Made by a program: the position numbers and the translations under genes
In this document: positions 3,854-53,369 of the stretch, piece after piece
Numbering within the stretch: the stretch's first letter is position 1
Layout: each line of letters starts with the position of its first letter
Source: Shigella phage B2
Sequence record: OM858838
Direction: 5' to 3' (one strand)
DNA: 64,000 nucleotides
Notes under the pieces: generated by a model
Told to the model about the DNA's origin: nothing
Database searches by the model: none
Seen by the model: the letters and a program-made list of their open reading frames with translations, nothing else

Positions 3854-3928
3854 AAAAAAGAAAGAGGAATTCATCCTCTTCAAATCAAACTGTAATTTTT
3901 AATCCCAATCTGAAAAGGTAAAAAAGAA

Positions 3929-5371
3929 ATGGCTAAGACTCTTGAGCAAGATGAAAAGAAAGTACACGTTGCTGAAATCGTTCGTCACGGCGAAAAACTG
4001 ATTGTGCCGGAAGGCATGTCTCTGAGCGATGTTATCGACCTCGCTAAACGTCGCATGAAGTTCGAAGAAGAAGAAGTTCTGGTACGTCGTACCTATAACG
4101 TATTCCCATGGGATGGTGCTCATGCTCTGATGCTGGCACTGACCGAACGTTATGGCTGGGCTGCTGCTGAAGCAACTCCTGGTTTCTTCGGCTCCAATCC
4201 TCCGCAAATGCTGGATGTGCAGGTCGGCTATGGCAAAACCAAAAAAGTTCCATGGGGACGTTTCTCTCTGCCACAGGTAGATGGTTTTGTTCAGTGTTCT
4301 GCACAGAAGAAAGATGGTCGTATCAGCTTCGAACTGGTCGGTAAAGTCCTGCGTAAAGACGAAAAGACTATCGAACTGCTGTTTGATACCGTTGAGCAAA
4401 CTCTGCGTACCAACTCCATTTACATGGGTCAGGCTATCAAAATCCGTTTCCGCGATAACGATGGCGACCTGCTGGAAATGCCGGAACCAGAATTCATGGA
4501 CCTGCGTGGTATCAGCCGTGATTCTCTGGTTTATTCTGACGATGTTCAGAACCTGATTGAAACCAACCTGTTTACGCCGATTGAGCGTGTTGCTGACTGT
4601 ATCGCTAACGATATGCCGGTTAAACGTGGCGTTCTGCTGGGTGGACCATACGGTACTGGTAAAACTATGGCTGCAACTGTTGCTGCTGCTCTGGCTACCA
4701 ACGTGGGTGTTACCTACGTATACGTACCGCGTTCTGATGAACTGTCTGATGCAATTCAGTTTGCTAAGCAGTACAGCGATAAAGCCTGCGTAATCTTCTG
4801 TGAAGATATCGACCGTGCCGTATCCGGTGAACGTAGCGTGAAGATGGACGATATCCTGAACATTCTGGATGGTATCGACACCAAAACTTCTCGCATCATC
4901 ACCGTTCTGACCACCAACCATCTGGAAAACATCAACCCAGCAATGCTGCGTCCGGGCCGTCTGGATGCAATCATCGATGTTACTGCGCCTGATGCGAAAG
5001 CTGTTGAAAAACTGGTTCGCCTGTATGGTCGTGACACCATCGCTGCTGATGCAGACCTGACTCTGGTCGGTGAAGCTCTGGCTGGTACTATTCCTGCGGT
5101 AATCGCGGAAGTTGTTAAGCGTGCGAAACTGCACCAGCTTCAGTATCAAGAAGCAGGTACTCTGATTGAAGAAATCAGCGGTCAAGCTCTGCTGGATTCC
5201 GCTCTGACTATTCAGGCACAGCGTAAGCTGCTGGAAGAACAGTCCAAGCCGAAAGTTAAAGAACCAACCTTCAACGAAACTATCGCTGCTGCTGTTGCTC
5301 CGGCAATTGCTGAAGCTGTAGGTAAAGTTGCTGGTCAGGTTTCTGAACTGCACGAACGTATCGTCGGCTAA
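3929..5371 (+). CDS. classic-clade AAA+ ATPase, codon-optimised (highly expressed)
   Basis: Walker A GGPYGTGKT, Walker B VIFCEDID, second region of homology with RPGRLD; strong host-like optimal codon usage (CTG, CGT, GGT, AAA) distinct from neighbours. Confidence 0.85.
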   Translation: MAKTLEQDEKKVHVAEIVRHGEKLIVPEGMSLSDVIDLAKRRMKFEEEEVLVRRTYNVFPWDGAHALMLALTERYGWAAAEATPGFFGSNPPQMLDVQVGYGKTKKVPWGRFSLPQVDGFVQCSAQKKDGRISFELVGKVLRKDEKTIELLFDTVEQTLRTNSIYMGQAIKIRFRDNDGDLLEMPEPEFMDLRGISRDSLVYSDDVQNLIETNLFTPIERVADCIANDMPVKRGVLLGGPYGTGKTMAATVAAALATNVGVTYVYVPRSDELSDAIQFAKQYSDKACVIFCEDIDRAVSGERSVKMDDILNILDGIDTKTSRIITVLTTNHLENINPAMLRPGRLDAIIDVTAPDAKAVEKLVRLYGRDTIAADADLTLVGEALAGTIPAVIAEVVKRAKLHQLQYQEAGTLIEEISGQALLDSALTIQAQRKLLEEQSKPKVKEPTFNETIAAAVAPAIAEAVGKVAGQVSELHERIVG

Positions 5372-43918: not shown

Positions 43919-44218
43919 ATGGCATACTCAGATGTTGATGCAATTCTTGCTGATGGTAAACAAGCTGTAGCTGTTAAACATGGTGGTGGTTTAGTTGTTG
44001 TAGGTGAACTTGGTGCTCAAGTACTTGCAGCTAAAGACGTAAGTGAATTACCAGATGGTGTAGGTGGTACTGCTCCAGGTGCTGCTACTACTACTACTGC
44101 TGGTGTAGTTAAACAATCAACTACTCAAGCAGCTTCAGTAGCTACTGATGTAGCAGGTGTAGTTACTGATTTGAATGCTTTAATTACTAAGCTAAAAGCT
44201 GCTGGTATTATGGCTTAA
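43919..44218 (+). CDS. small Gly/Ala/Thr/Val-rich protein sharing N-terminal module with next gene
   Basis: GGAGG SD; N-terminus MAYSDVDAILADGK…GGG…LAAKDVSELP; biased codon usage. Confidence 0.55.
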   Translation: MAYSDVDAILADGKQAVAVKHGGGLVVVGELGAQVLAAKDVSELPDGVGGTAPGAATTTTAGVVKQSTTQAASVATDVAGVVTDLNALITKLKAAGIMA

Positions 44219-44295: not shown

Positions 44296-44931
44296 ATGGC
44301 TTATTCAGATTTGGATGATGTATTTGAAGATGGTAAAGATATCATTCCAAAACAAGGTGGAGGAATTGCTGTAATTAGTCCTTTTGGAGAAGAAATACTT
44401 TCTGCTAAAGATGCTACAGAACTTCCATTTGTTGTTACTCCTCCAGAGACACCTGAAGATATCTTCTTATTAGATATCTTTAACTGGACTGGTAATTTAT
44501 CTATTCCTACAAGTGCTACTACATTCACTAACTTCTTTGCATTATCAGGTATAACCAAGAATCCTATTGGTACTGCTGGGTTGACTATTACTTCTGGTAA
44601 TCTCCTATTCCCATTGAGAACCAAACATAGTCAAGTAATCTTCTCCATTCGTGTTTCTGGAAGTGTTGCTGGTGCAGCAGGTACTGATAGAGAATGGAAG
44701 ATTCAAACCAGAAGACCTAATGGAGATATTGTTGGTTCTGATTTTGCTGTTAAAACTGTAGCTGATACAGATATCAGTAACCGTGATACTACTTTATCAA
44801 GTTATGCACTAGCCAATACTGACCCATTCTTTACTCAGGGTATTCAGTTAGGTCTATTTAATAACTCGGGTCAAACTATCACTCTTACTTCAGTATCTGT
44901 TCGAATACTACAAACAATTAATCCAAGCTAA
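44296..44931 (+). CDS. protein with same N-terminal module (MAYSDLDDVFEDGK…) and divergent C-terminal domain
   Basis: GGAGG SD; paralogous first ~45 residues to 43919-44218 product. Confidence 0.55.
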   Translation: MAYSDLDDVFEDGKDIIPKQGGGIAVISPFGEEILSAKDATELPFVVTPPETPEDIFLLDIFNWTGNLSIPTSATTFTNFFALSGITKNPIGTAGLTITSGNLLFPLRTKHSQVIFSIRVSGSVAGAAGTDREWKIQTRRPNGDIVGSDFAVKTVADTDISNRDTTLSSYALANTDPFFTQGIQLGLFNNSGQTITLTSVSVRILQTINPS

Positions 44932-44971: not shown

Positions 44972-45292
44972 ATGAGAGTCAAAACATATCTAAGACGCCA
45001 GAGAGAAGGCTCTATACCTGTTAAATCAAGTAATGATGATATAGGTATACAAGAGTATCCTGACGTACTCTTAACCATGTACATCAACACACTTGAAAAT
45101 GGAGATTCTCCGAGAGCCTTACGTGAAGGTATTAAGGAAATTATGAAACGAGTTCAATCTCCTAGAGTTAAGTCCATCCTCCAAGATATCAAACGAGCTA
45201 CATCACCAGTAGGCAGATTACATTTTTACTATGGTGCTTTGGAACGTGACTTAGAAGAGATTAGAGACATATCAAAAGAAAGCCCCCAATAA
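44972..45292 (+). CDS. hypothetical protein
   Basis: ORF ending in bidirectional terminator. Confidence 0.5.
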   Translation: MRVKTYLRRQREGSIPVKSSNDDIGIQEYPDVLLTMYINTLENGDSPRALREGIKEIMKRVQSPRVKSILQDIKRATSPVGRLHFYYGALERDLEEIRDISKESPQ

Positions 45293-45299
45293 GGGGGCT
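45281..45299. terminator. bidirectional hairpin between convergent genes
   Basis: stem agccccc/gggggct with AATAA loop. Confidence 0.5.
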
Positions 45300-45305
45300 A
45301 TTTAC

Positions 45306-47639
45306 TTAGATGGATGCTTCAGAGTTACCAAACATATCCCAAGCTTCTAACTCAATATTCCAGTATGAAGTTGGAGGAGTAGAAGGCCACGTTATATTAA
45401 TATCTAAAACAAGTCCGCCATTCCCTGCACCTACACCAATAGTGACATAAGAAGCCATATCAATATCTCGTATGGTTTCTAATGGCATATTAGGGCCATT
45501 AGCTCCAGCAACTTTAAGGTCTTTCATACTATAGTGGGCCGCAGTTGCTGTAATAGCTGTTGGTTGGTTACCTGTTGCATATGTAGTCTTAAGGATTTTA
45601 CCAGTGAATACATACCCACCACCAGTAGTCTTGATTAATAAGACCTCTAAATAATCCCCACTACTGTTACTAATTTTAAGTACGGAATGCCCACAGTTAT
45701 AGAAATTAGTACCTAAATCTCCAGAAATAGATGGAGTAGTAGGAAGCATACTTTGTGGCATTGGTACTTGAAAATTAACTAATGCAGTAGCCGTAGGCAA
45801 AGTTGCTTGGTTATATGCCTGCGGAATTTTTTTAGAATAAACAGCACGATGACCTTTATCAAATCTAGCCCAATTACGTGCTTGAACAGACATACCTACA
45901 GGCACAGGTTGTACAGTCAAAGAGTTAAGATAAAAATCTCCTCCAGTACCCTGTAAATTGGTAAAAAATGTAAGAGTTTTCCAACCACGACCCAGAATTC
46001 TACCAACAAATTTCCTATCTGCTGAGTATGTAGTACTCAGGTCAACAATGGCATTATTCGCTGCTTGAGGTGAGTTAGAAAAATTAATGGACTGGTTATT
46101 AGCGAAATCATAATAATCTTGTGCGCCATTATTCCACCAACTAGGAGCATCAACAAGAACGTTTATTGGACCAGCACCACTACCATGTACAAAAATATGT
46201 GCTGCTTCTGCATCTAAATAAAAACTGAATGTTGCAATAGATGCTACATTAGCAAGCATACCCCCCACAACTTTAGTACGGGTATACGCACCATCAGAAC
46301 GACCTAAGTTAATATTACCCGTAGCATCGCAATAGCCAATGCTATCATCTAAACGACCACACCAAGTATTAATCTCATTAGTGAGTGGACGGTAGGTTGG
46401 TAACAAACCACCAGCCATAAACATAGATGCTAGCATCTGACCATGAATCGCATAACCCATGGAGTTAAAGTGACCACCATCAGATTGCACTGCACCATTA
46501 TGACGATAGTACTGAACTTCATCAGCATTGAAATGAGCACAACCATATGTGTCAGCCATCATACGCATACGTTTTGCCCACAGGTTAGCAACAACACCGC
46601 CAGAACCCTGACCACCAGTAGAGCAAGTCTGGACAACTACACCCATACCCCAATCAATGAAGCGACGGATGAGTTTTTCCATATACTCCATGTAAATATC
46701 TTCAGTAGTTCCAGCAACACCACCAGCATCGTTCAAACCTAACATTAAAATAACAACATCACAGTTAGGATTGGATTGCCATGATGGTTCATTGTATGAC
46801 TGAATTGCTGTATGTCCTGAAATAGCACGATATACACCAGTAACACTACAACCTGACTGTTCTGGTAAGTAAGCCATAAAACGTTGAGGATAAGTCATAC
46901 TAGCATGAGTAGCCCAATCCCCGTTGTTAGCAGGAACACGGTCAGTAGAAGTAGTATCGTAACCAGCAGTCATTGAGTCACCCTGGAACAATACTTTGAT
47001 TGAACCACGACTATGAACTTGCTTATCTACCCAAGCTAATTTCTGGATATTACGTGCACGGTAATTTGCTGAATCATTAGCAATAATCCACTGTTGTACA
47101 GTTTTACCATCAGACGTACCAATCTGGGATGCACCACCAGTAGTAGCTAATTCATCTCGTAACTCTTCACCAGTAACTTCAATCCATGCTGATGCACTAA
47201 TACCTCCACTTGAAGCAGGAGTTGAACCAGCAGGAACTACTTTAGGTACTGCCCCCGCCCAACGATATTGAGCGCCATTAGAATGGGTAAGAATTTCATT
47301 CTTAACCTGAATGGTTGCACCAGAAGTAAAGTCACCAGGAATAGTCACATACTCTTTACGCAAAACAGCTACTGCTCCAAGGTCTACAGAACCTTGTGAA
47401 TGTACAAGTACAGCAGCAGTACTAAGACTGATGGCAGTAGTACCAGCAGGAATACCAATAGGTAAGGAGTAAGCTCTTTGCGTGGTCTTGTCATAAATTA
47501 CTTTATATCCAGAGATATCAACACCAACAGAGAAATAAACAACCTCAGACTGTTTAACTCCGAAGTGTCTAGCTACTGCTTGTTTATTGGTTAGGATTCC
47601 AGCAGAACCTTTACCACCTTGACTAAATAACTGATTCAT
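45306..47639 (-). CDS. tail fibre/spike-like protein with SGNH (GDSL) hydrolase domain
   Basis: SGNH block ILMLGLNDAGG and upstream GDSMTAGY; 777 aa late gene. Confidence 0.6.
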   Translation of the reverse strand: MNQLFSQGGKGSAGILTNKQAVARHFGVKQSEVVYFSVGVDISGYKVIYDKTTQRAYSLPIGIPAGTTAISLSTAAVLVHSQGSVDLGAVAVLRKEYVTIPGDFTSGATIQVKNEILTHSNGAQYRWAGAVPKVVPAGSTPASSGGISASAWIEVTGEELRDELATTGGASQIGTSDGKTVQQWIIANDSANYRARNIQKLAWVDKQVHSRGSIKVLFQGDSMTAGYDTTSTDRVPANNGDWATHASMTYPQRFMAYLPEQSGCSVTGVYRAISGHTAIQSYNEPSWQSNPNCDVVILMLGLNDAGGVAGTTEDIYMEYMEKLIRRFIDWGMGVVVQTCSTGGQGSGGVVANLWAKRMRMMADTYGCAHFNADEVQYYRHNGAVQSDGGHFNSMGYAIHGQMLASMFMAGGLLPTYRPLTNEINTWCGRLDDSIGYCDATGNINLGRSDGAYTRTKVVGGMLANVASIATFSFYLDAEAAHIFVHGSGAGPINVLVDAPSWWNNGAQDYYDFANNQSINFSNSPQAANNAIVDLSTTYSADRKFVGRILGRGWKTLTFFTNLQGTGGDFYLNSLTVQPVPVGMSVQARNWARFDKGHRAVYSKKIPQAYNQATLPTATALVNFQVPMPQSMLPTTPSISGDLGTNFYNCGHSVLKISNSSGDYLEVLLIKTTGGGYVFTGKILKTTYATGNQPTAITATAAHYSMKDLKVAGANGPNMPLETIRDIDMASYVTIGVGAGNGGLVLDINITWPSTPPTSYWNIELEAWDMFGNSEASI

Positions 47640-47657: not shown

Positions 47658-48890
47658 TTATACAACAGCACCAGTTGAGTCTACCCATGCAGTTCCATTA
47701 AACCAAATAGGTTTACCTAACGTAGTATCAAAATGTTGTGTACCAGTTAATACTCCAATAGGTCTTTGTGCAGTAGTACCACTCAGTCCTAACGTAACAA
47801 TAGGAGTCAAGGTTACTACAATATTACCCGGCAGATAAGTTAACTGACCATTCACTACACTTTGAATATATACGTTGTTAGGTACACTAGAAGGAATCCA
47901 ATAGTAAACCTGAGACACAATATCATACAGGATACGCTTACCATTTAGAGTCTCTACAGTGTTATCACTTTTGATAACCTCTGAGTCCTTCATGTTAGTT
48001 GCTCTAGCAATCTCATACAGGCTTCTATCTGGAGATTCTAATGTAACTAACTCACCTCCAAGCTGAACTACTAATCTATCATTAGTAGATAATGGTTCAG
48101 TCAGTAAGATACGTTTGTTATCTTGGTCTACAGTATAAGATTGAGTTGATAATCCACCTTGATATCTCAATCCATTCTTAAAGATTGCTGGTACAGTTTG
48201 GAAGGTATATGGAATAACAATTACCTGTTCTCCGCCAACTGCTGCACCATTGTTATAAATCCAGTTAATAACAGTCCAACTATCAATGTTTGGATTATCA
48301 GGTACAGCAGGATTACCTGAAAGCATCAGAACAACTTCATCACCTTGCTCTAATGGCTGAGCTAAAGTAACAGTCAGATTAACAGAGTTAAAAGTAAATC
48401 CTCTGCCTACCTGTTGACGGAAACCTTCCACATAAATTTCTGGAACACCAATAGTGTAATCAGGAACTACAATAGTAGTTTCTCCACCAGCAGCAGAACC
48501 ATTATTAAATACAAATGGGATATATGCACCAGTGCCTGTAGCAGCACCGCTATTAGATGAGCCAACAACTACCCAGCTACCAGTAGCAGTAGGGTCACTT
48601 GGTAATACTCCAGTACGGTCACCTTCTACATAGAGGTAATCAGTATAGATTCTGACACCTGTAGGGGTAGAAGAATACACACGAGTATACTTAGCAGTTG
48701 TAGGTAATTCCTGTAACTCTGTAACTGAGTCAACTGTAATCAATACACCATAATCATTTAAAAAATTATAGATGAACTGAATCTCACCCAGATTATCATA
48801 TACAGTTTTAACTACATCGTAAGCAGTACCAATGAATTTCTCCACCATACCTGCTTGATTACCACAGCACGTATTTGTAGTTCGAATCAT
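47658..48890 (-). CDS. tail-associated structural protein
   Basis: Gly/Thr/Val-rich beta-type composition, late operon. Confidence 0.5.
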   Translation of the reverse strand: MIRTTNTCCGNQAGMVEKFIGTAYDVVKTVYDNLGEIQFIYNFLNDYGVLITVDSVTELQELPTTAKYTRVYSSTPTGVRIYTDYLYVEGDRTGVLPSDPTATGSWVVVGSSNSGAATGTGAYIPFVFNNGSAAGGETTIVVPDYTIGVPEIYVEGFRQQVGRGFTFNSVNLTVTLAQPLEQGDEVVLMLSGNPAVPDNPNIDSWTVINWIYNNGAAVGGEQVIVIPYTFQTVPAIFKNGLRYQGGLSTQSYTVDQDNKRILLTEPLSTNDRLVVQLGGELVTLESPDRSLYEIARATNMKDSEVIKSDNTVETLNGKRILYDIVSQVYYWIPSSVPNNVYIQSVVNGQLTYLPGNIVVTLTPIVTLGLSGTTAQRPIGVLTGTQHFDTTLGKPIWFNGTAWVDSTGAVV

Positions 48891-48891
48891 C

Positions 48892-49596
48892 TTATACCCA
48901 TCCTCTCATTTCTGGTTTAACGTTAGTTTGTGCAATGTGAGCATTGTCCAAATCTAGATTCTCAATCTTCGTACACTCTGCTTCAAATCTCTGACTCCAT
49001 TCAACCCCTTTAGCTGCTGTCTCTGGATTAGGTGAATTGGAATAAAGCTGTGAAGCAATGTAATACGTCAGAGCCTTTTCATGACTAGCTGGGATACGTA
49101 CTTCTGTATTCAAGTCTGTAGTCGTCAGAGCAATCTTAGGATGATTTGCCCTATAAGTCACAAACAATGCATTAGTTTCAATTGGATAAACAATCTGAAT
49201 GCAGTCAAATGAAGGGGTCACAATAGAACCACAGCAAGGTTCATTGTTTAAATACAACGGACAACCACATTCATCAAAGACTCTCTCTACTCTAATAACA
49301 TCATCTAAGAATCTTTCAGTTGGTGAATCCATTAAGTACTTATACTTTTCTGTAGAAGTAGTATTCATCTGAGCAAACTCACTGCGCAGATAATACTTAG
49401 AAATTTGCTCATATTGCTGAATGATTACTTCTTTTTCTAACAGAGGAAATCTGGCATGAAGGTTAGTTAAGCCAGCATTCAATTGAGCAATAACTTTAGG
49501 ATAATCTTGAGTACGAATACCCTGTCCATCATTACCAGTTCGAATGAGGCTTAACTCACCTACAGATAACATCTGAAATAATTCTGACAATTTCAT
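48892..49596 (-). CDS. structural/assembly protein
   Basis: ORF coupled to neighbours. Confidence 0.5.
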   Translation of the reverse strand: MKLSELFQMLSVGELSLIRTGNDGQGIRTQDYPKVIAQLNAGLTNLHARFPLLEKEVIIQQYEQISKYYLRSEFAQMNTTSTEKYKYLMDSPTERFLDDVIRVERVFDECGCPLYLNNEPCCGSIVTPSFDCIQIVYPIETNALFVTYRANHPKIALTTTDLNTEVRIPASHEKALTYYIASQLYSNSPNPETAAKGVEWSQRFEAECTKIENLDLDNAHIAQTNVKPEMRGWV

Positions 49597-49639: not shown

Positions 49640-51265
49640 TTAAACCAGATAACTATCTATTCCATTGGATTGGGTTGGTTCAGGCATGTCCCATATACCA
49701 TCATCCTGTACACCTCCTGTAGAGCCTTGTGAGGGCTTCCATACTTTAAGACACCCTAACATACTGATGGTATCAATAAAGTCGTCATGCTTGCTCTTAA
49801 AGCCCTCTACAGTAGCTAACTGAAGCTCATCCATAGCTTCTAACATAATCTTCTCTTCTTTGAGTTCTTCAGGGAAATACATCTTACCTGCTTTGAACCA
49901 AGGAAGAACTGAGTTGAATCTCACCATCTTATTACTATTAGGTCGAATACCCGGTCTACTGTTATTGCCATCAGAGGCAAAATTGAACCAAATATTACGA
50001 GTCATCATCTCATTCTGAAGTAGCGGGATGAATCCACCTTGCTGACCTGTAACTTCAATGCCTACAGATTGAGGTTGGTACTCTACAACTAGTCTAAATA
50101 GGTCATCAAAGTTCTTATCCATAAGCTGGCGTCTACAAATACCATCAACCCAGAACCAATCACCATTAGAGTTGATGGCCCATACAGAAATAACTGAATA
50201 GTCAGCAGACTGTTTCTCAGAAGTAGCAAAGTCAGTAGTGATATAGAAATTAAAATGACCTCTATTCAGCAGAAGAGACTTACGCTTATACCATTGGATA
50301 TCAGAATCCATGACAAGCCTCTCTTCATCAGAGGTAATTCGTAGCATCAATTCCTGATTGAATGCAGCAACCTGTCCAGTTGATACAGCAAGGTCGTATT
50401 GCCCTTTAACGAAGTCATATGAGAAGCGGTCTTCCCAAGCTCCTACAAATTCTTCACGAGAACATGGGAATTTCTCACAAATAGGGAATACGTTTACATA
50501 CCAACCACCTGATTCTACTGCTTCATAAAGAATATCGTTCTTATTAAAGGGTGTTCCACTGAAAACAATCTTTCTACGTACAGGGTCGAGAGCATAATCG
50601 ACACCTTTGTACACAGTATCCTTGATTGCCTGCATAGTTGACTTAGATTTAGCATCATCATCACTAACTAAGTCATCCAATACAGCTAAAACAGGACGTT
50701 TACCAAAGATTTTAGTACCACGAAGACCTGTCTTAGCACCAAACATACGAACACCTAGCTTATGCCCATCAGCATTAGTGAATTCTAGGTATGCATCAGT
50801 GAATTTGGCTTCAGGAATGTACTTCTGAAGGAATTCAGAGTTGTTATAACGGTATTCGATATTCTTTCTAAGTGATTTTACCCCGTTCTCCATTGAGTCA
50901 GAGACATAAATCATACCTTCGATTTCACCAAATCCATCAATCTCCCCATATAAGGCAATATACAGAACCAGATACTCACCAAATAAGGTAGTTTTAGCCA
51001 TACCACGAGAACAAAGATTGGCTAATCGAGTACGTTTACCTGCTAACTCATCAAGCATTTTAAGATGAACAACAGGAGTAAGGTTAGATTCACCTGCTTC
51101 ACCATTAACCATCTTGATAAAGTTCACATAGTTAATTGCGAATACAGAAGGAACATAGTTACCGTCATTGAGAGTGCTGTAATCAACAGTATTCAGCCAC
51201 TCTACAACTGACTTTTTAACCATTGGGTCTTCTTTAATCATCGACACGTTCAGATTCTCCATCAA
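49640..51265 (-). CDS. terminase large subunit
   Basis: Walker-A-like SRGMAKTT, Walker-B-like PVLAVLDDLVSDDD, C-terminal acidic nuclease-like region; 541 aa. Confidence 0.7.
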   Translation of the reverse strand: MMENLNVSMIKEDPMVKKSVVEWLNTVDYSTLNDGNYVPSVFAINYVNFIKMVNGEAGESNLTPVVHLKMLDELAGKRTRLANLCSRGMAKTTLFGEYLVLYIALYGEIDGFGEIEGMIYVSDSMENGVKSLRKNIEYRYNNSEFLQKYIPEAKFTDAYLEFTNADGHKLGVRMFGAKTGLRGTKIFGKRPVLAVLDDLVSDDDAKSKSTMQAIKDTVYKGVDYALDPVRRKIVFSGTPFNKNDILYEAVESGGWYVNVFPICEKFPCSREEFVGAWEDRFSYDFVKGQYDLAVSTGQVAAFNQELMLRITSDEERLVMDSDIQWYKRKSLLLNRGHFNFYITTDFATSEKQSADYSVISVWAINSNGDWFWVDGICRRQLMDKNFDDLFRLVVEYQPQSVGIEVTGQQGGFIPLLQNEMMTRNIWFNFASDGNNSRPGIRPNSNKMVRFNSVLPWFKAGKMYFPEELKEEKIMLEAMDELQLATVEGFKSKHDDFIDTISMLGCLKVWKPSQGSTGGVQDDGIWDMPEPTQSNGIDSYLV

Positions 51266-51929
51266 TTACTAACTTGGTATGAGCTACTTCTTTAGCTGAA
51301 TAGACTCCGCCTTCAATCAGTTGTCGCTGCTTCGCAGCTAGCTGTGAGGTTAATTCCCTCAGTTCACTAATTACACCACCTTCCTGCAATCCAACATTAA
51401 GTTCAATCTTATTGGCTTCAGGACGTTTGAGATGATTAAGTAATGAGTTAGCTGCTTCACACTTAACCTTCTCACTTTTAGCATTAAGCATTAAATCTGC
51501 TTGAACGTTAATAGCTTTCTGAAAGATATCAGCATTAAGAACATGAGTTGGAACCAAAGTCTGTTCATAGATAAGGTTAACTAACTTACCTTTGTTGTAT
51601 GCAGATACATAACAATGAATATCTTTAGTGGAAGTACCGGAGTTCAAGAAGTTTTGATATCGGTCTGGGAAAGTTTTTATATAAGCTTCAAAGTTGGTAT
51701 GTCCCATTAGTTTAAAACTGACATACTTAACTGCGGATAAGTAGTCTTCAATCTTAAACTTACCATCCTTCATTACATGGGTATAAGACATTAAGTTATC
51801 TCTCAATACTTCACCCATAATGGGGTCAGAGAGAATCTTATTAATCTTATCCATTAAATCCTGATTAACACTGCCTTTATGATTTTGAGGCATTACAGCT
51901 TTAAACTGTTCTACTGATAACTGAGTCAT
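51234..51929 (-). CDS. possible terminase small subunit
   Basis: immediately upstream of and overlapping large terminase gene; no motif proof. Confidence 0.4.
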   Translation of the reverse strand: MTQLSVEQFKAVMPQNHKGSVNQDLMDKINKILSDPIMGEVLRDNLMSYTHVMKDGKFKIEDYLSAVKYVSFKLMGHTNFEAYIKTFPDRYQNFLNSGTSTKDIHCYVSAYNKGKLVNLIYEQTLVPTHVLNADIFQKAINVQADLMLNAKSEKVKCEAANSLLNHLKRPEANKIELNVGLQEGGVISELRELTSQLAAKQRQLIEGGVYSAKEVAHTKLVIDGESERVDD

Positions 51930-52134: not shown

Positions 52135-52209
52135 GGTTCTATGGTCCAGTGGAAAGGATATTCCCCTGTCACGGGAAAGGCCCGAGTTCAATTCTCGGTA
52201 GAACCGCCA
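52135..52209 (+). tRNA. tRNA-Asp (anticodon GTC), CCA encoded
   Basis: hand-folded cloverleaf: acceptor ggttcta/tagaacc, anticodon loop CTGTCAC, T-arm ccgag-TTCAATT-ctcgg. Confidence 0.8.
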
Positions 52210-52213
52210 ATTA

Positions 52214-52288
52214 CAGGATATAGCTCAAGTTGGTTAGAGCACTCGGCTCATAACCGAGAGTGTCCAGGTTCGAAACCGGGTGGAACCA
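52214..52288 (+). tRNA. tRNA-like, anticodon CAT (Met or Ile2); acceptor stem does not pair by hand-folding, possible pseudo-tRNA
   Basis: canonical D-arm tagctcaagttggttagagca and anticodon arm ctcgg-CTCATAA-ccgag, T-loop TTCGAAA. Confidence 0.4.
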
Positions 52289-52298
52289 CCAAATAATG

Positions 52299-52383
52299 AA
52301 GAGAGTCGTATAGCGGCCCAATACGCCACCCGAACGTTACGACTAGTACGGAGAACACGCAGGTTCGAATCCTGCCTCTCTTC
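52299..52383 (+). tRNA. type II tRNA-like element, anticodon unresolved
   Basis: acceptor aagagag/ctctctt, perfect T-arm gcagg-TTCGAAT-cctgc, 85 nt; anticodon arm not foldable by eye. Confidence 0.35.
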
Positions 52384-52389
52384 ACAAAT

Positions 52390-52463
52390 TGTCTCATAGC
52401 TCAGTAGGTCAGAGCGTTCCCCTGATAAGGGAAAGGTCACTAGTTCGATTCCAATTGAGACAA
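52390..52463 (+). tRNA. tRNA-Ile (anticodon GAT)
   Basis: acceptor tgtctca/tgagaca, D-arm, anticodon loop CTGATAA; T-stem has two mismatches. Confidence 0.55.
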
Positions 52464-52605
52464 CCATCCAATAGATTACAGTTCGTATCTCTTAGGGGAA
52501 TACACTTGTAATTGCGGCCCGATAGGAAAGGGTAATTTCTCGACGATGGGAGTAGACCATTGACTGTTTGGAATAGACAACTGACGCTGTGAACGAGAAC
52601 AGGAA

Positions 52606-52692
52606 CAAGATGAGTCGTATAATAGGCAAATACAATATTCATGTTTCGCTATAGGCATGGAGAAGGAACGTGAGTTCGAGTCTCACCTCATC
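52606..52692 (+). tRNA. type II tRNA-like element, anticodon unresolved (paralogue of 52299 element)
   Basis: acceptor agatgag/ctcatca, T-arm gtgag-TTCGAGT-ctcac; shares 5' tcgtat…atac D-arm with 52299 element. Confidence 0.35.
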
Positions 52693-52794
52693 AATAGTTC
52701 TTATCAGGGATTACTTACTACTATATATCATACATTACCTCGCCTGGTGTGTTGGTGTTACCTCGGTAGATAAGTAATCCACTAATAAGAATTT

Positions 52795-52880
52795 GGAAGA
52801 TTCCGCTCAGTGGTGGGCAATCCGGTTTGAACCCGGAGGTGCTGGTAACGGTAGGGGTTCGACTCCTCAATCTTCCGCCA
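52795..52880 (+). tRNA. tRNA-Ser (anticodon TGA), type II, CCA encoded
   Basis: acceptor ggaagat/atcttcc, anticodon arm tccgg-TTTGAAC-ccgga, long variable arm, T-loop TTCGACT. Confidence 0.75.
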
Positions 52881-52886
52881 ATATTT

Positions 52887-52962
52887 GATAGGATAGCTAA
52901 CTCGGTAAAGCGGCAGACTGTTAATCTGCGACATTAGGGTTCAAATCCCTATCCCATCGCCA
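52887..52962 (+). tRNA. tRNA-Asn (anticodon GTT), CCA encoded
   Basis: anticodon arm gcaga-CTGTTAA-tctgc, T-arm taggg-TTCAAAT-cccta. Confidence 0.8.
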
Positions 52963-53127
52963 AACTTGCAGGTAACTCTGCAATCCGTGACCAGTCGGTA
53001 TGTTTATTAGTATGTAAAAGGCTGGGCTTCCTGCCTCTCATAGCCATACTCTTAAATGAATAACTGGTAGTCCAGCCAAGCGCACGAAGATGGGGACCCT
53101 CACCATCGGACAAAACGAGGGTACTAA

Positions 53128-53204
53128 GCATCCTTAGCTCAGTTGGATAGAGCAGTAGCCTTCTAAGCTATTGGTCACTGGTTCGAATCCAGTAGGGTGT
53201 ACCA
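53128..53204 (+). tRNA. tRNA-Arg (anticodon TCT), CCA encoded
   Basis: D-arm gctcagttggatagagc, anticodon loop CTTCTAA, T-arm actgg-TTCGAAT-ccagt. Confidence 0.8.
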
Positions 53205-53205
53205 A

Positions 53206-53281
53206 GCTCACTAAGTTCATATGGGTGAACGCCTGCCTTGTAAGCAGGATGAACGCGGTTCGATTCCGTGGGTGAGCACCA
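53206..53281 (+). tRNA. tRNA-Thr (anticodon TGT), CCA encoded
   Basis: acceptor gctcact/ggtgagc, anticodon arm cctgc-CTTGTAA-gcagg, T-loop TTCGATT. Confidence 0.8.
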
Positions 53282-53283
53282 AT

Positions 53284-53369
53284 GGGAGTATGGTGAAATC
53301 GGTAGACACAAGGGATTTAAAATCCCTCGGCTTATAGCTGTACGAGTTCGAGTCTCGTTACTCCCACCA
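53284..53369 (+). tRNA. tRNA-Leu (anticodon TAA), type II, CCA encoded
   Basis: acceptor gggagta/tactccc, anticodon arm aggga-TTTAAAA-tccct, long variable arm, T-arm acgag-TTCGAGT-ctcgt. Confidence 0.75.

Follow-up and report, generated by a model that had tools for sequence, protein, structure and literature searches.

What does the gene at positions 45306-47639 of the Shigella phage B2 sequence encode, and what would its product do to the surface of the host? We addressed this question in a stretch of 64,000 nucleotides of the record OM858838, hereafter the window, to which all coordinates refer. A first-pass annotation, made from the letters of the window and a list of its open reading frames (ORFs), had described the product as a tail fibre- or spike-like protein of 777 residues with two motifs of an SGNH/GDSL esterase, and had taken these motifs to point to enzymatic modification of the receptor. 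We identify the product as the virion tailspike gp48 of phage B2, which infects Shigella flexneri, and find in it an SGNH esterase domain. A publication of 2024 had already reported the structure of gp48, where it sits in the virion, that it acts as an esterase and that infection depends on the O-antigen, and the present work should therefore be considered a correct annotation and not a discovery.

Identity of the gene

The ORF listing returned a single ORF at exactly the annotated span, which lies on the minus strand, begins with ATG and encodes 777 residues. Both motifs were recovered from its translation, GDSMTAGY at residues 220-227 (nucleotides 46959-46982) and ILMLGLNDAGG at residues 297-307 (nucleotides 46719-46751). 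A sequence search of the PDB matched the product over 777/777 residues, with 100% identity, to chain 9d84_A, 'Gp48'. The entry 9D84 is assigned to the B2 tailspike in the supplement of Subramanian et al. (Sci Adv 2024; PMC11654681), who determined the structure of the gp48/gp49 complex by electron cryo-microscopy at 2.3 A. When the AlphaFold model of gp48 was searched with Foldseek, the first-ranked entry was 'Shigella flexneri bacteriophage B2 Gp48 and Gp49'. In addition, the published gp48 primers match the window exactly at the two ends of the ORF, at 47614-47636 (minus strand) and 45306-45329 (plus strand), and the published gp49 primers match exactly at 48853-48887 (minus strand) and 47658-47686 (plus strand), which are the ends of an ORF of 410 residues. 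The lengths of further ORFs in the window agree with those in the B2 paper, namely the portal (706 residues), the adaptor (234), the tail tube (206) and the virion RNA polymerase (3741 residues; 411 kDa in PMC11654681). Phage B2 belongs to the Schitoviridae, Humphriesvirinae, and is Ithacavirus-like. In the phage collection that we searched, which does not include the B2 genome deposited as GCA_024606155.1, the record of Salmonella phage vB_SenP_UTK0001 comes nearest and has 95.5% identity at the nucleotide level over the gp48 gene.

The description as a tail fibre- or spike-like protein also holds. The protein carries a Tail_spike_N domain and matches about 35 PHROG tail fibre or spike families (best E = 3.6e-147), and mass spectrometry places it in B2 virions, where it forms a trimeric complex with gp49 that co-purifies (PMC11654681).

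The SGNH esterase domain

The first-pass annotation had proposed a profile hidden Markov model search as a check of the esterase domain. In this search, two GDSL families of Pfam exceeded their curated cut-offs: Lipase_GDSL_2 (PF13472; residues 220-398, E = 1.2e-10; score 42.6 bits, cut-off 32.9) and Lipase_GDSL (PF00657; residues 218-397, E = 2.8e-5; score 24.8 bits, cut-off 23.6). The conserved SGNH blocks I, II, III and V are all present in canonical order, as G220-D221-S222, S274-G275, G301-L-N303-D304 and D387-G-G-H390. GDSMTAGY is block I, and ILMLGLNDAGG is block III.

The predicted structure agrees with the profiles. The AlphaFold model, built from a 37-sequence alignment and assigned secondary structure by DSSP, has a predicted local distance difference test score (pLDDT) of about 90 or more over residues 190-420, with strands at 213-220, 265-272, 295-299, 333-338 and 368-371. 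G220-D221-S222 directly follows the first of these strands. Beyond the family of gp48 itself, Foldseek matched the acetyl-xylan esterase Axe2, TesA and EstL5, with target-normalised template modelling (TM) scores of 0.62-0.81 and E = 1e-7 to 1e-5. The profile, the blocks and the three-layer alpha/beta/alpha fold of five parallel strands alternating with helices fit together, and residues 213-410 of gp48 belong to the SGNH/GDSL hydrolase superfamily.

Absence of the Ser/Asp/His triad on alignment had been named in advance as the result that would speak against an esterase. We collected homologues by an exhaustive HMMER search of residues 190-777 against 1.84 billion cluster representatives, which gave 250 relatives at E <= 1e-3; a word-indexed search with the esterase domain gave six proteins, mostly prophage or bacterial fragments. 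For the conservation alignment, 150 representatives from clusters at <=50% identity were listed, and 142 of them were aligned with gp48 over the esterase region, which gives 143 sequences. In this alignment the triad is present. S222, G275, N303, D387 and H390 are each conserved in 97-100% of the sequences (counts in Table 1), whereas the adjacent positions vary freely. In alignment A1, Ser222 is invariant. D387 and H390 are also kept in the alignments with Moo19 gp82, PDB 9lna and the tailspike of phage c341. The profile match, the predicted fold and this conservation together uphold the reading of an SGNH/GDSL esterase domain. The predicted catalytic set consists of S222 as the nucleophile, G275 and N303 as the oxyanion hole, and D387 and H390 as the acid and the base.

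Two other candidate positions were set aside. H276, in the sequence SGH, was rejected as the catalytic histidine; the position is Asp in 107/143 sequences, His in 6/143 and Tyr in Moo19. A second D..H match, DKGH at residues 594-597, lies outside the SGNH domain and was discounted. Because neither 'SGNH' nor 'catalytic triad' occurs in the main text of PMC11654681, the residue assignment represents a small addition to the published description.

Activity, receptor and proposed mechanism

According to the B2 paper, the purified gp48/gp49 complex hydrolyses p-nitrophenyl acetate rapidly and in a dose-dependent manner (PMC11654681). Together with the place of gp48 in the virion tailspike, this activity supports the earlier suggestion of enzymatic receptor modification. 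The same study describes the host requirements. Infection is abolished by knock-outs of waaC, waaL and waaG, and full lipopolysaccharide (LPS) with O-antigen is needed. Serotype Y, whose O-antigen is unmodified, is not infected. A gtr-/oacD double mutant is fully resistant and an oacB mutant partly so; no knock-out of oacD alone could be obtained. Knock-outs of wecC and wecD, which affect the common antigen, have little effect. The binding of B2 to LPS is reversible, and LPS alone neither inactivates the virions nor triggers ejection (PMC11654681).

Related activities have been described in two other phages. The tailspike gp63.1 of the E. coli phage G7C deacetylates the O-antigen; infection requires this activity, which appears to be processive (PMC10743462). 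Tail parts of phage c341 deacetylate the O-antigen without cleaving the chain (Iwashita & Kanegasaki 1976, as cited in PMC5380687).

On this basis, gp48 is very probably the distal enzymatic subunit of a spike carried by gp49 and gp50, and very probably deacetylates the O-antigen of serotype 2a. In the mechanism that we propose, gp48 would be the enzymatically active outer subunit of a lateral tailspike, and its trimer would dock onto gp49 by way of the N-terminal module (residues 1 to about 160); gp49 is a gp66-like anchor that would sit on the gp50 tail adaptor. At contact with the host, the beta-sandwich region of the spike would bind the serotype 2a O-antigen in its O-acetylated form. The esterase would then hydrolyse O-acetyl esters of the O-antigen, most likely the 6-O-acetyl substituent of N-acetylglucosamine (GlcNAc), and leave the backbone uncut. 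By binding, deacetylating and letting go again and again, the virion would make its way across the O-antigen layer to a secondary receptor. We infer the native substrate and this processive walk down the chain by analogy with G7C gp63.1 and phage c341.

Alternative explanations

Several points weigh against the proposed picture. The published assay covers the purified complex with an artificial substrate, and the published genetics covers mutants of the host. The substrate that was assayed, p-nitrophenyl acetate, is a generic one, and SGNH-type acetyltransferases also turn it over. As there is no single oacD knock-out, the requirement for 6-O-acetyl-GlcNAc is confounded with the loss of glucosylation. 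The triad is assigned from the sequence and the predicted fold. In addition, the similarity between the esterase domains of gp48 and G7C gp63.1 is marginal (23% identity over 134 residues, E = 5e-4), and LPS triggers genome release in G7C and not in B2, so the steps after binding differ between the two phages.

These points leave room for a spike that recognises acetyl groups rather than removing them. The SGNH domain would then be mainly an O-acetyl-specific binding module with a residual, dispensable esterase, and infection would need recognition and not hydrolysis. An artificial substrate alone was assayed, host genetics show a need for the O-antigen modifications and not for their removal, and the interaction with LPS is reversible and without an ejection trigger, all of which this explanation would accommodate. 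However, the conservation of the full catalytic set at 97-100% in 143 diverged homologues argues for selection on catalysis, and the purified complex turns over its substrate rapidly. Moreover, in G7C it is the enzymatic activity itself that is essential, and c341 virions deacetylate the O-antigen. We therefore regard a mere binding module as unlikely. Still less probable, and in our opinion very unlikely, is an esterase directed at something other than the O-antigen, such as the acyl chains of lipid A or phospholipids, the enterobacterial common antigen or another O-acetylated glycan. The near absence of an effect of the wecC and wecD knock-outs, together with the block to infection when the O-antigen or its modifications are lost, speaks against such a target, as do the carbohydrate-binding-module folds that follow the esterase and the fact that both the c341 spike, a homologue, and the G7C spike, an analogue, act on O-antigen acetyl groups. 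What favours it is that the matching Pfam families carry lipase and acylhydrolase names, and that the fold search also matched TesA-like thioesterases and lysophospholipases.

An acyltransferase, or an enzyme that relocates O-antigen acetyl groups in the manner of OafA or PatB, would share both the SGNH domain and the turnover of p-nitrophenyl acetate with gp48. Where an SGNH domain is joined to an AT3 or MBOAT protein, it does acetylate glycans (PMC9558356 and PMC12148441). Outside the cell, however, such an enzyme would lack an acetyl donor, and the virion contains no AT3 or MBOAT partner; the nearest structural neighbours of gp48 (Axe2, TesA and EstL5) are hydrolases, and the family member c341 gives net deacetylation. 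To this explanation we give hardly any credence, and a deacetylating tailspike remains the reading that we prefer.

Architecture of the spike and its operon

The coordinates of the domains of gp48, of the predicted catalytic codons and of the neighbouring genes are collected in Table 1.

Table 1. Features of the gp48 locus, with the evidence on which each assignment is based
Feature	Coordinates	Strand	Basis
gp48 coding sequence (777 residues and stop), esterase tailspike or 'tail fiber' of Shigella phage B2	45306..47639	-	ORF, PDB identity, primers
N-terminal docking module, residues 1-93, predicted to attach gp48 to gp49	47361..47639	-	Likeness to G7C and CBA120
Tail_spike_N domain (PF18668, TSP1/Gp66 receptor-binding N-terminal domain), residues 94-156	47172..47360	-	Pfam
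Helical neck leading into the esterase domain, residues 157-212	47004..47171	-	DSSP on model
SGNH (GDSL-type) esterase domain, residues 213-410, five parallel beta-strands alternating with helices	46410..47003	-	Pfam, model, Foldseek
Ser222 codon, block I, predicted nucleophile	46974..46976	-	Ser in 142/143; the remaining row is a gap
Gly275 codon, block II, predicted oxyanion-hole glycine	46815..46817	-	143/143
Asn303 codon, block III, predicted oxyanion-hole asparagine	46731..46733	-	N303 142/143; D304 141/143
D387-G-G-H390 codons, block V (DxxH), predicted catalytic acid and base	46470..46481	-	D387 139/143; H390 143/143
First part of the beta-sandwich region, residues 421-635	45735..46379	-	Model; low-confidence loop at about 498-541
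C-terminal beta-sandwich domain, residues 636-777, distal tip of the trimer	45309..45734	-	Model
Hairpin rich in G+C, with runs of T on both strands, 7 nucleotides downstream of the gp48 stop	45281..45299		Terminator scan
gp49 (410 residues), virion-proximal partner carrying gp48	47658..48890	-	PDB match, gp66 homology, primers
gp50 (234 residues), tail adaptor for tailspike attachment	48892..49596	-	phrog_2125, length

Residues 22-64 of gp48 weakly resemble residues 294-337 of gp49 (E = 4e-4), and the N-terminus of gp48 also matches the N-termini of the CBA120 spikes TSP1, TSP3 and TSP4 (PDB 4oj5, 5w6f and 5w6h). The docking role is assigned to this N-terminus because gp48 and gp49 co-purify as the published complex (PMC11654681). 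The Tail_spike_N match is strong (E = 1.9e-19; score 70 bits, cut-off 25), with a model pLDDT of about 82-89, and the neck that follows has helices at residues 157-164, 169-172 and 181-209, the last of which is long.

Beyond the esterase, the end points of the homologue matches suggest domain boundaries near residues 415 and 635. At least part of this region has folds like those of carbohydrate-binding modules, and residues 421-777 therefore probably hold the O-antigen chain; residues 421-635 are probably the part that binds its backbone. The C-terminal domain is modelled with strands at 652-768 (pLDDT of about 82-94) and is common to only about 24 of the closest representative clusters.

The partner gp49 matches 'Gp49' of the PDB entries 9d83_D and 9d84 over 410/410 residues (E = 1.5e-273) and shares 56% identity with the stretch 14-374 of gp66, a G7C protein of 1063 residues. 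Judged by its sequence, gp49 is a gp66 cut down to the part that anchors in the virion and docks the spike, without the receptor-binding C-terminal two-thirds. On the tail, the model of the B2 paper covers residues 10-74 of the tailspike (PMC11654681). The adaptor gp50 matches the virion structural proteins of phrog_2125 (E = 2.4e-83), gives a weak Pfam match to SU10_adaptor, and has the length that the paper gives for the B2 adaptor.

These genes form part of a minus-strand run that leads from an ORF of 231 residues (51234..51929) through the terminase, gp50 and gp49 to gp48. The hairpin beyond gp48 has seven pairs, six of them G-C, was scored on both strands and lies where genes converge; it is likely a bidirectional terminator that closes the gp48 operon. 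Around the gp48 gene, eight sigma-70-like promoters were found where 22.6 were expected. This is no enrichment, but as the late genes of N4-like phages use other promoter types, we draw no conclusion from it.

Other observations in the window

A plus-strand ORF of 99 residues (43919-44218) agrees in size with gp45, the 9-kDa decoration protein of B2, and its C-terminus is like that of head fibres. The plus-strand ORF of 211 residues that lies beyond it (44296-44931) has a 45-residue N-terminus in common with it (49% identity, E = 1e-14) and then diverges, and its product is absent from the virion proteins in Table 1 of PMC11654681. The similarity suggests that the longer ORF may encode a second protein with the same capsid-binding module.

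At 52135-53369, ARAGORN identified seven transfer RNA (tRNA) genes (Asp, Ile, Ser, Asn, Arg, Thr and Leu); the equivalent stretch of UTK0001 has 10 annotated tRNAs in a partly different set, which includes Pro, Tyr, Gln and Met. On opposite strands, a pair of ORFs of some 480 residues each, 3899-5353 (minus) and 3929-5371 (plus), overlaps almost completely, and likely at most one of them is a real gene. No other part of the window is as rich in G+C as the one where they lie (0.466, compared with about 0.39). The segment 60001-62000 is markedly A+T-rich (G+C 0.315) and has a strong positive GC skew of 0.175.

Near-identical spikes in phages of different host genera

The spike of UTK0001 (WDR22488.1; positions 8001-10334 of the homologous locus L001) differs from gp48 at 19/777 residues. 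The N-terminal module accounts for one of the differences and the esterase for two conservative V/I exchanges; the other 16 fall within residues 443-690, where they include N561R, Q563D, A608P and G690E. Their gp49 proteins differ at 1/410 residues. UTK0001 forms plaques only on a single strain of Salmonella (S.) Anatum, and its authors name B2 as the closest relative, whereas B2 forms plaques only on the S. flexneri 2a strain CFS100 (PMC11654681). According to a review of AT3 acyltransferases, the O-antigens of S. flexneri 2a and S. Anatum have different backbones, but both contain a hexose that is O-acetylated at C6: GlcNAc, acetylated by OacD, in S. flexneri, and galactose, acetylated by WbaK, in S. 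Anatum. The spike of c341, a homologue of gp48, likewise acts on S. Anatum.

These observations suggest that the substitutions in the beta-sandwich region may retune backbone binding. We tentatively propose, as a possibility that we ourselves hold to be doubtful, that the gp48-type esterase keys on the 6-O-acetylated hexose and not on the whole O-unit, and that a few substitutions in the beta-sandwich region suffice for a switch of host genus. If this is true, the pair would represent a tractable natural case in which a receptor-destroying enzyme crossed between host genera, and the positions that determine specificity would be narrowed to about 16.

Significance

Esterase tailspikes are a less common alternative to the glycan-cutting depolymerases by which podoviruses pass through the O-antigen layer. 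They explain why susceptibility to phages tracks serotype-converting O-acetylation in Shigella and Salmonella. To the published account of gp48, the present analysis adds the assignment of the catalytic residues, a domain map, the description of gp49 as a truncated gp66, the family link to c341 and the orthologue in a phage of S. Anatum.

Comparison with known tailspikes

A first comparison is with stand-alone SGNH enzymes. Axe2, an acetyl-xylan esterase of Geobacillus, and TesA of E. coli have the SGNH fold and the same architecture of blocks I, II, III and V as gp48, at 13-22% identity. Unlike gp48, they are soluble single-domain proteins and not trimeric virion proteins, and they have neither docking domains nor a beta-sandwich region.

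A closer relative is the tailspike of the S. Anatum phage c341 (g341c; YP_003090231.1), which is 31% identical to gp48 over 518 residues that cover the esterase and the next beta domain (E = 6e-59), and which keeps the GDS, SG, ND and DxxH motifs. Phage c341 is temperate and P22-like; its spike has a head-binding N-terminus of the P22 type, and its distal C-terminus is unrelated to that of gp48. In the 2017 review that covers this enzyme, its protein is entered as 'ND' (PMC5380687). From the alignment, we infer that the tailspike gene would be the source of the deacetylase activity described in 1976. The enzymatic module of gp48 would then be homologous to the spike of a phage for which O-antigen deacetylase activity is documented. 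In the c341 locus (L004), the spike gene (L004:1033-3411) is directly followed by an annotated O-antigen acetylase gene (L004:3497-4476), which is convergent with it. This temperate phage would thereby pair a spike that removes acetyl groups with a conversion gene that adds them.

The module formed by the esterase and the beta-sandwich region (residues 190-777) moves horizontally between phage types. It occurs in the N4-like phages B2, UTK0001 and Moo19 (51-97% identity to the gp48 module); in the T7-like Shigella phages SFPH2, SFP20, SFP21A/B and ESh23, Citrobacter phage SH3-5, Cronobacter phages Dev2/GW1 and Morganella phage MopsHU1 (about 51-52%); in the P22-like c341 (31%); and in minor tail proteins of Gordonia phages and proteins of Vibrio phages (23-27%). 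The minor tail proteins of many Gordonia phages, and hypothetical proteins of some Vibrio phages, have the SGNH domain and part of the next beta domain in common with gp48, at 23-28% identity and E = 1e-10 to 1e-20. These matches suggest that esterase spikes related to gp48 may act on the envelopes of actinobacteria and Vibrio.

The reference esterase tailspike of N4-like phages is gp63.1 of G7C (PDB 4QNL). Its N-terminal docking module is 73% identical to residues 1-164 of gp48, and like gp48 it carries an SGNH esterase mid-way in a trimeric spike (Foldseek E = 4.6e-27, global TM 0.40). The B2 paper describes the spikes of the two phages as having a 'highly similar topology' (PMC11654681), and the two-protein arrangement is parallel, with gp63.1 and gp66 in G7C against gp48 and gp49 in B2. 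However, the Pfam domains Gp63_3rd_G7C, G7C_GBD and G7C_C were not detected in gp48 at E <= 0.1, whereas gp63.1 has all three (E = 1e-41 to 1e-126). The view of gp48 as an orthologue of gp63.1 was dropped on the marginal esterase alignment given above. We believe that gp48 would work like gp63.1 and use the same docking module, and that its catalytic and distal parts would represent a different sequence family. The phages also differ in that gp66 of G7C carries a receptor-binding C-terminus of its own, which the 410-residue gp49 of B2 does not have, and in that LPS inactivates G7C but not B2.

The proteins that share about 51-52% identity with gp48 over residues 190-777 include those of Moo19 (gp82; PDB 9D80/9D81), SFP21A (PDB 9LNA), SFPH2, SH3-5 and Dev2/GW1. 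Moo19 gp82 and the tail fibres of the T7-like phages reach a target-normalised TM of 0.90 with gp48 and keep the catalytic motifs, and Moo19 gp82 likewise has esterase activity on p-nitrophenyl acetate (PMC11654681). The manner in which the module is attached differs. In the T7-like phages, it follows an N-terminus of the T7 gp17 type. In Moo19, the anchor and the esterase are fused in a single chain of 1086 residues, in which residues 25-378 align with gp49 and residues 294-1082 with gp48, whereas B2 encodes its anchor and its enzyme in separate genes. One adsorption device has therefore been found in three architectures, which are branched in G7C, split in B2 and fused in Moo19.

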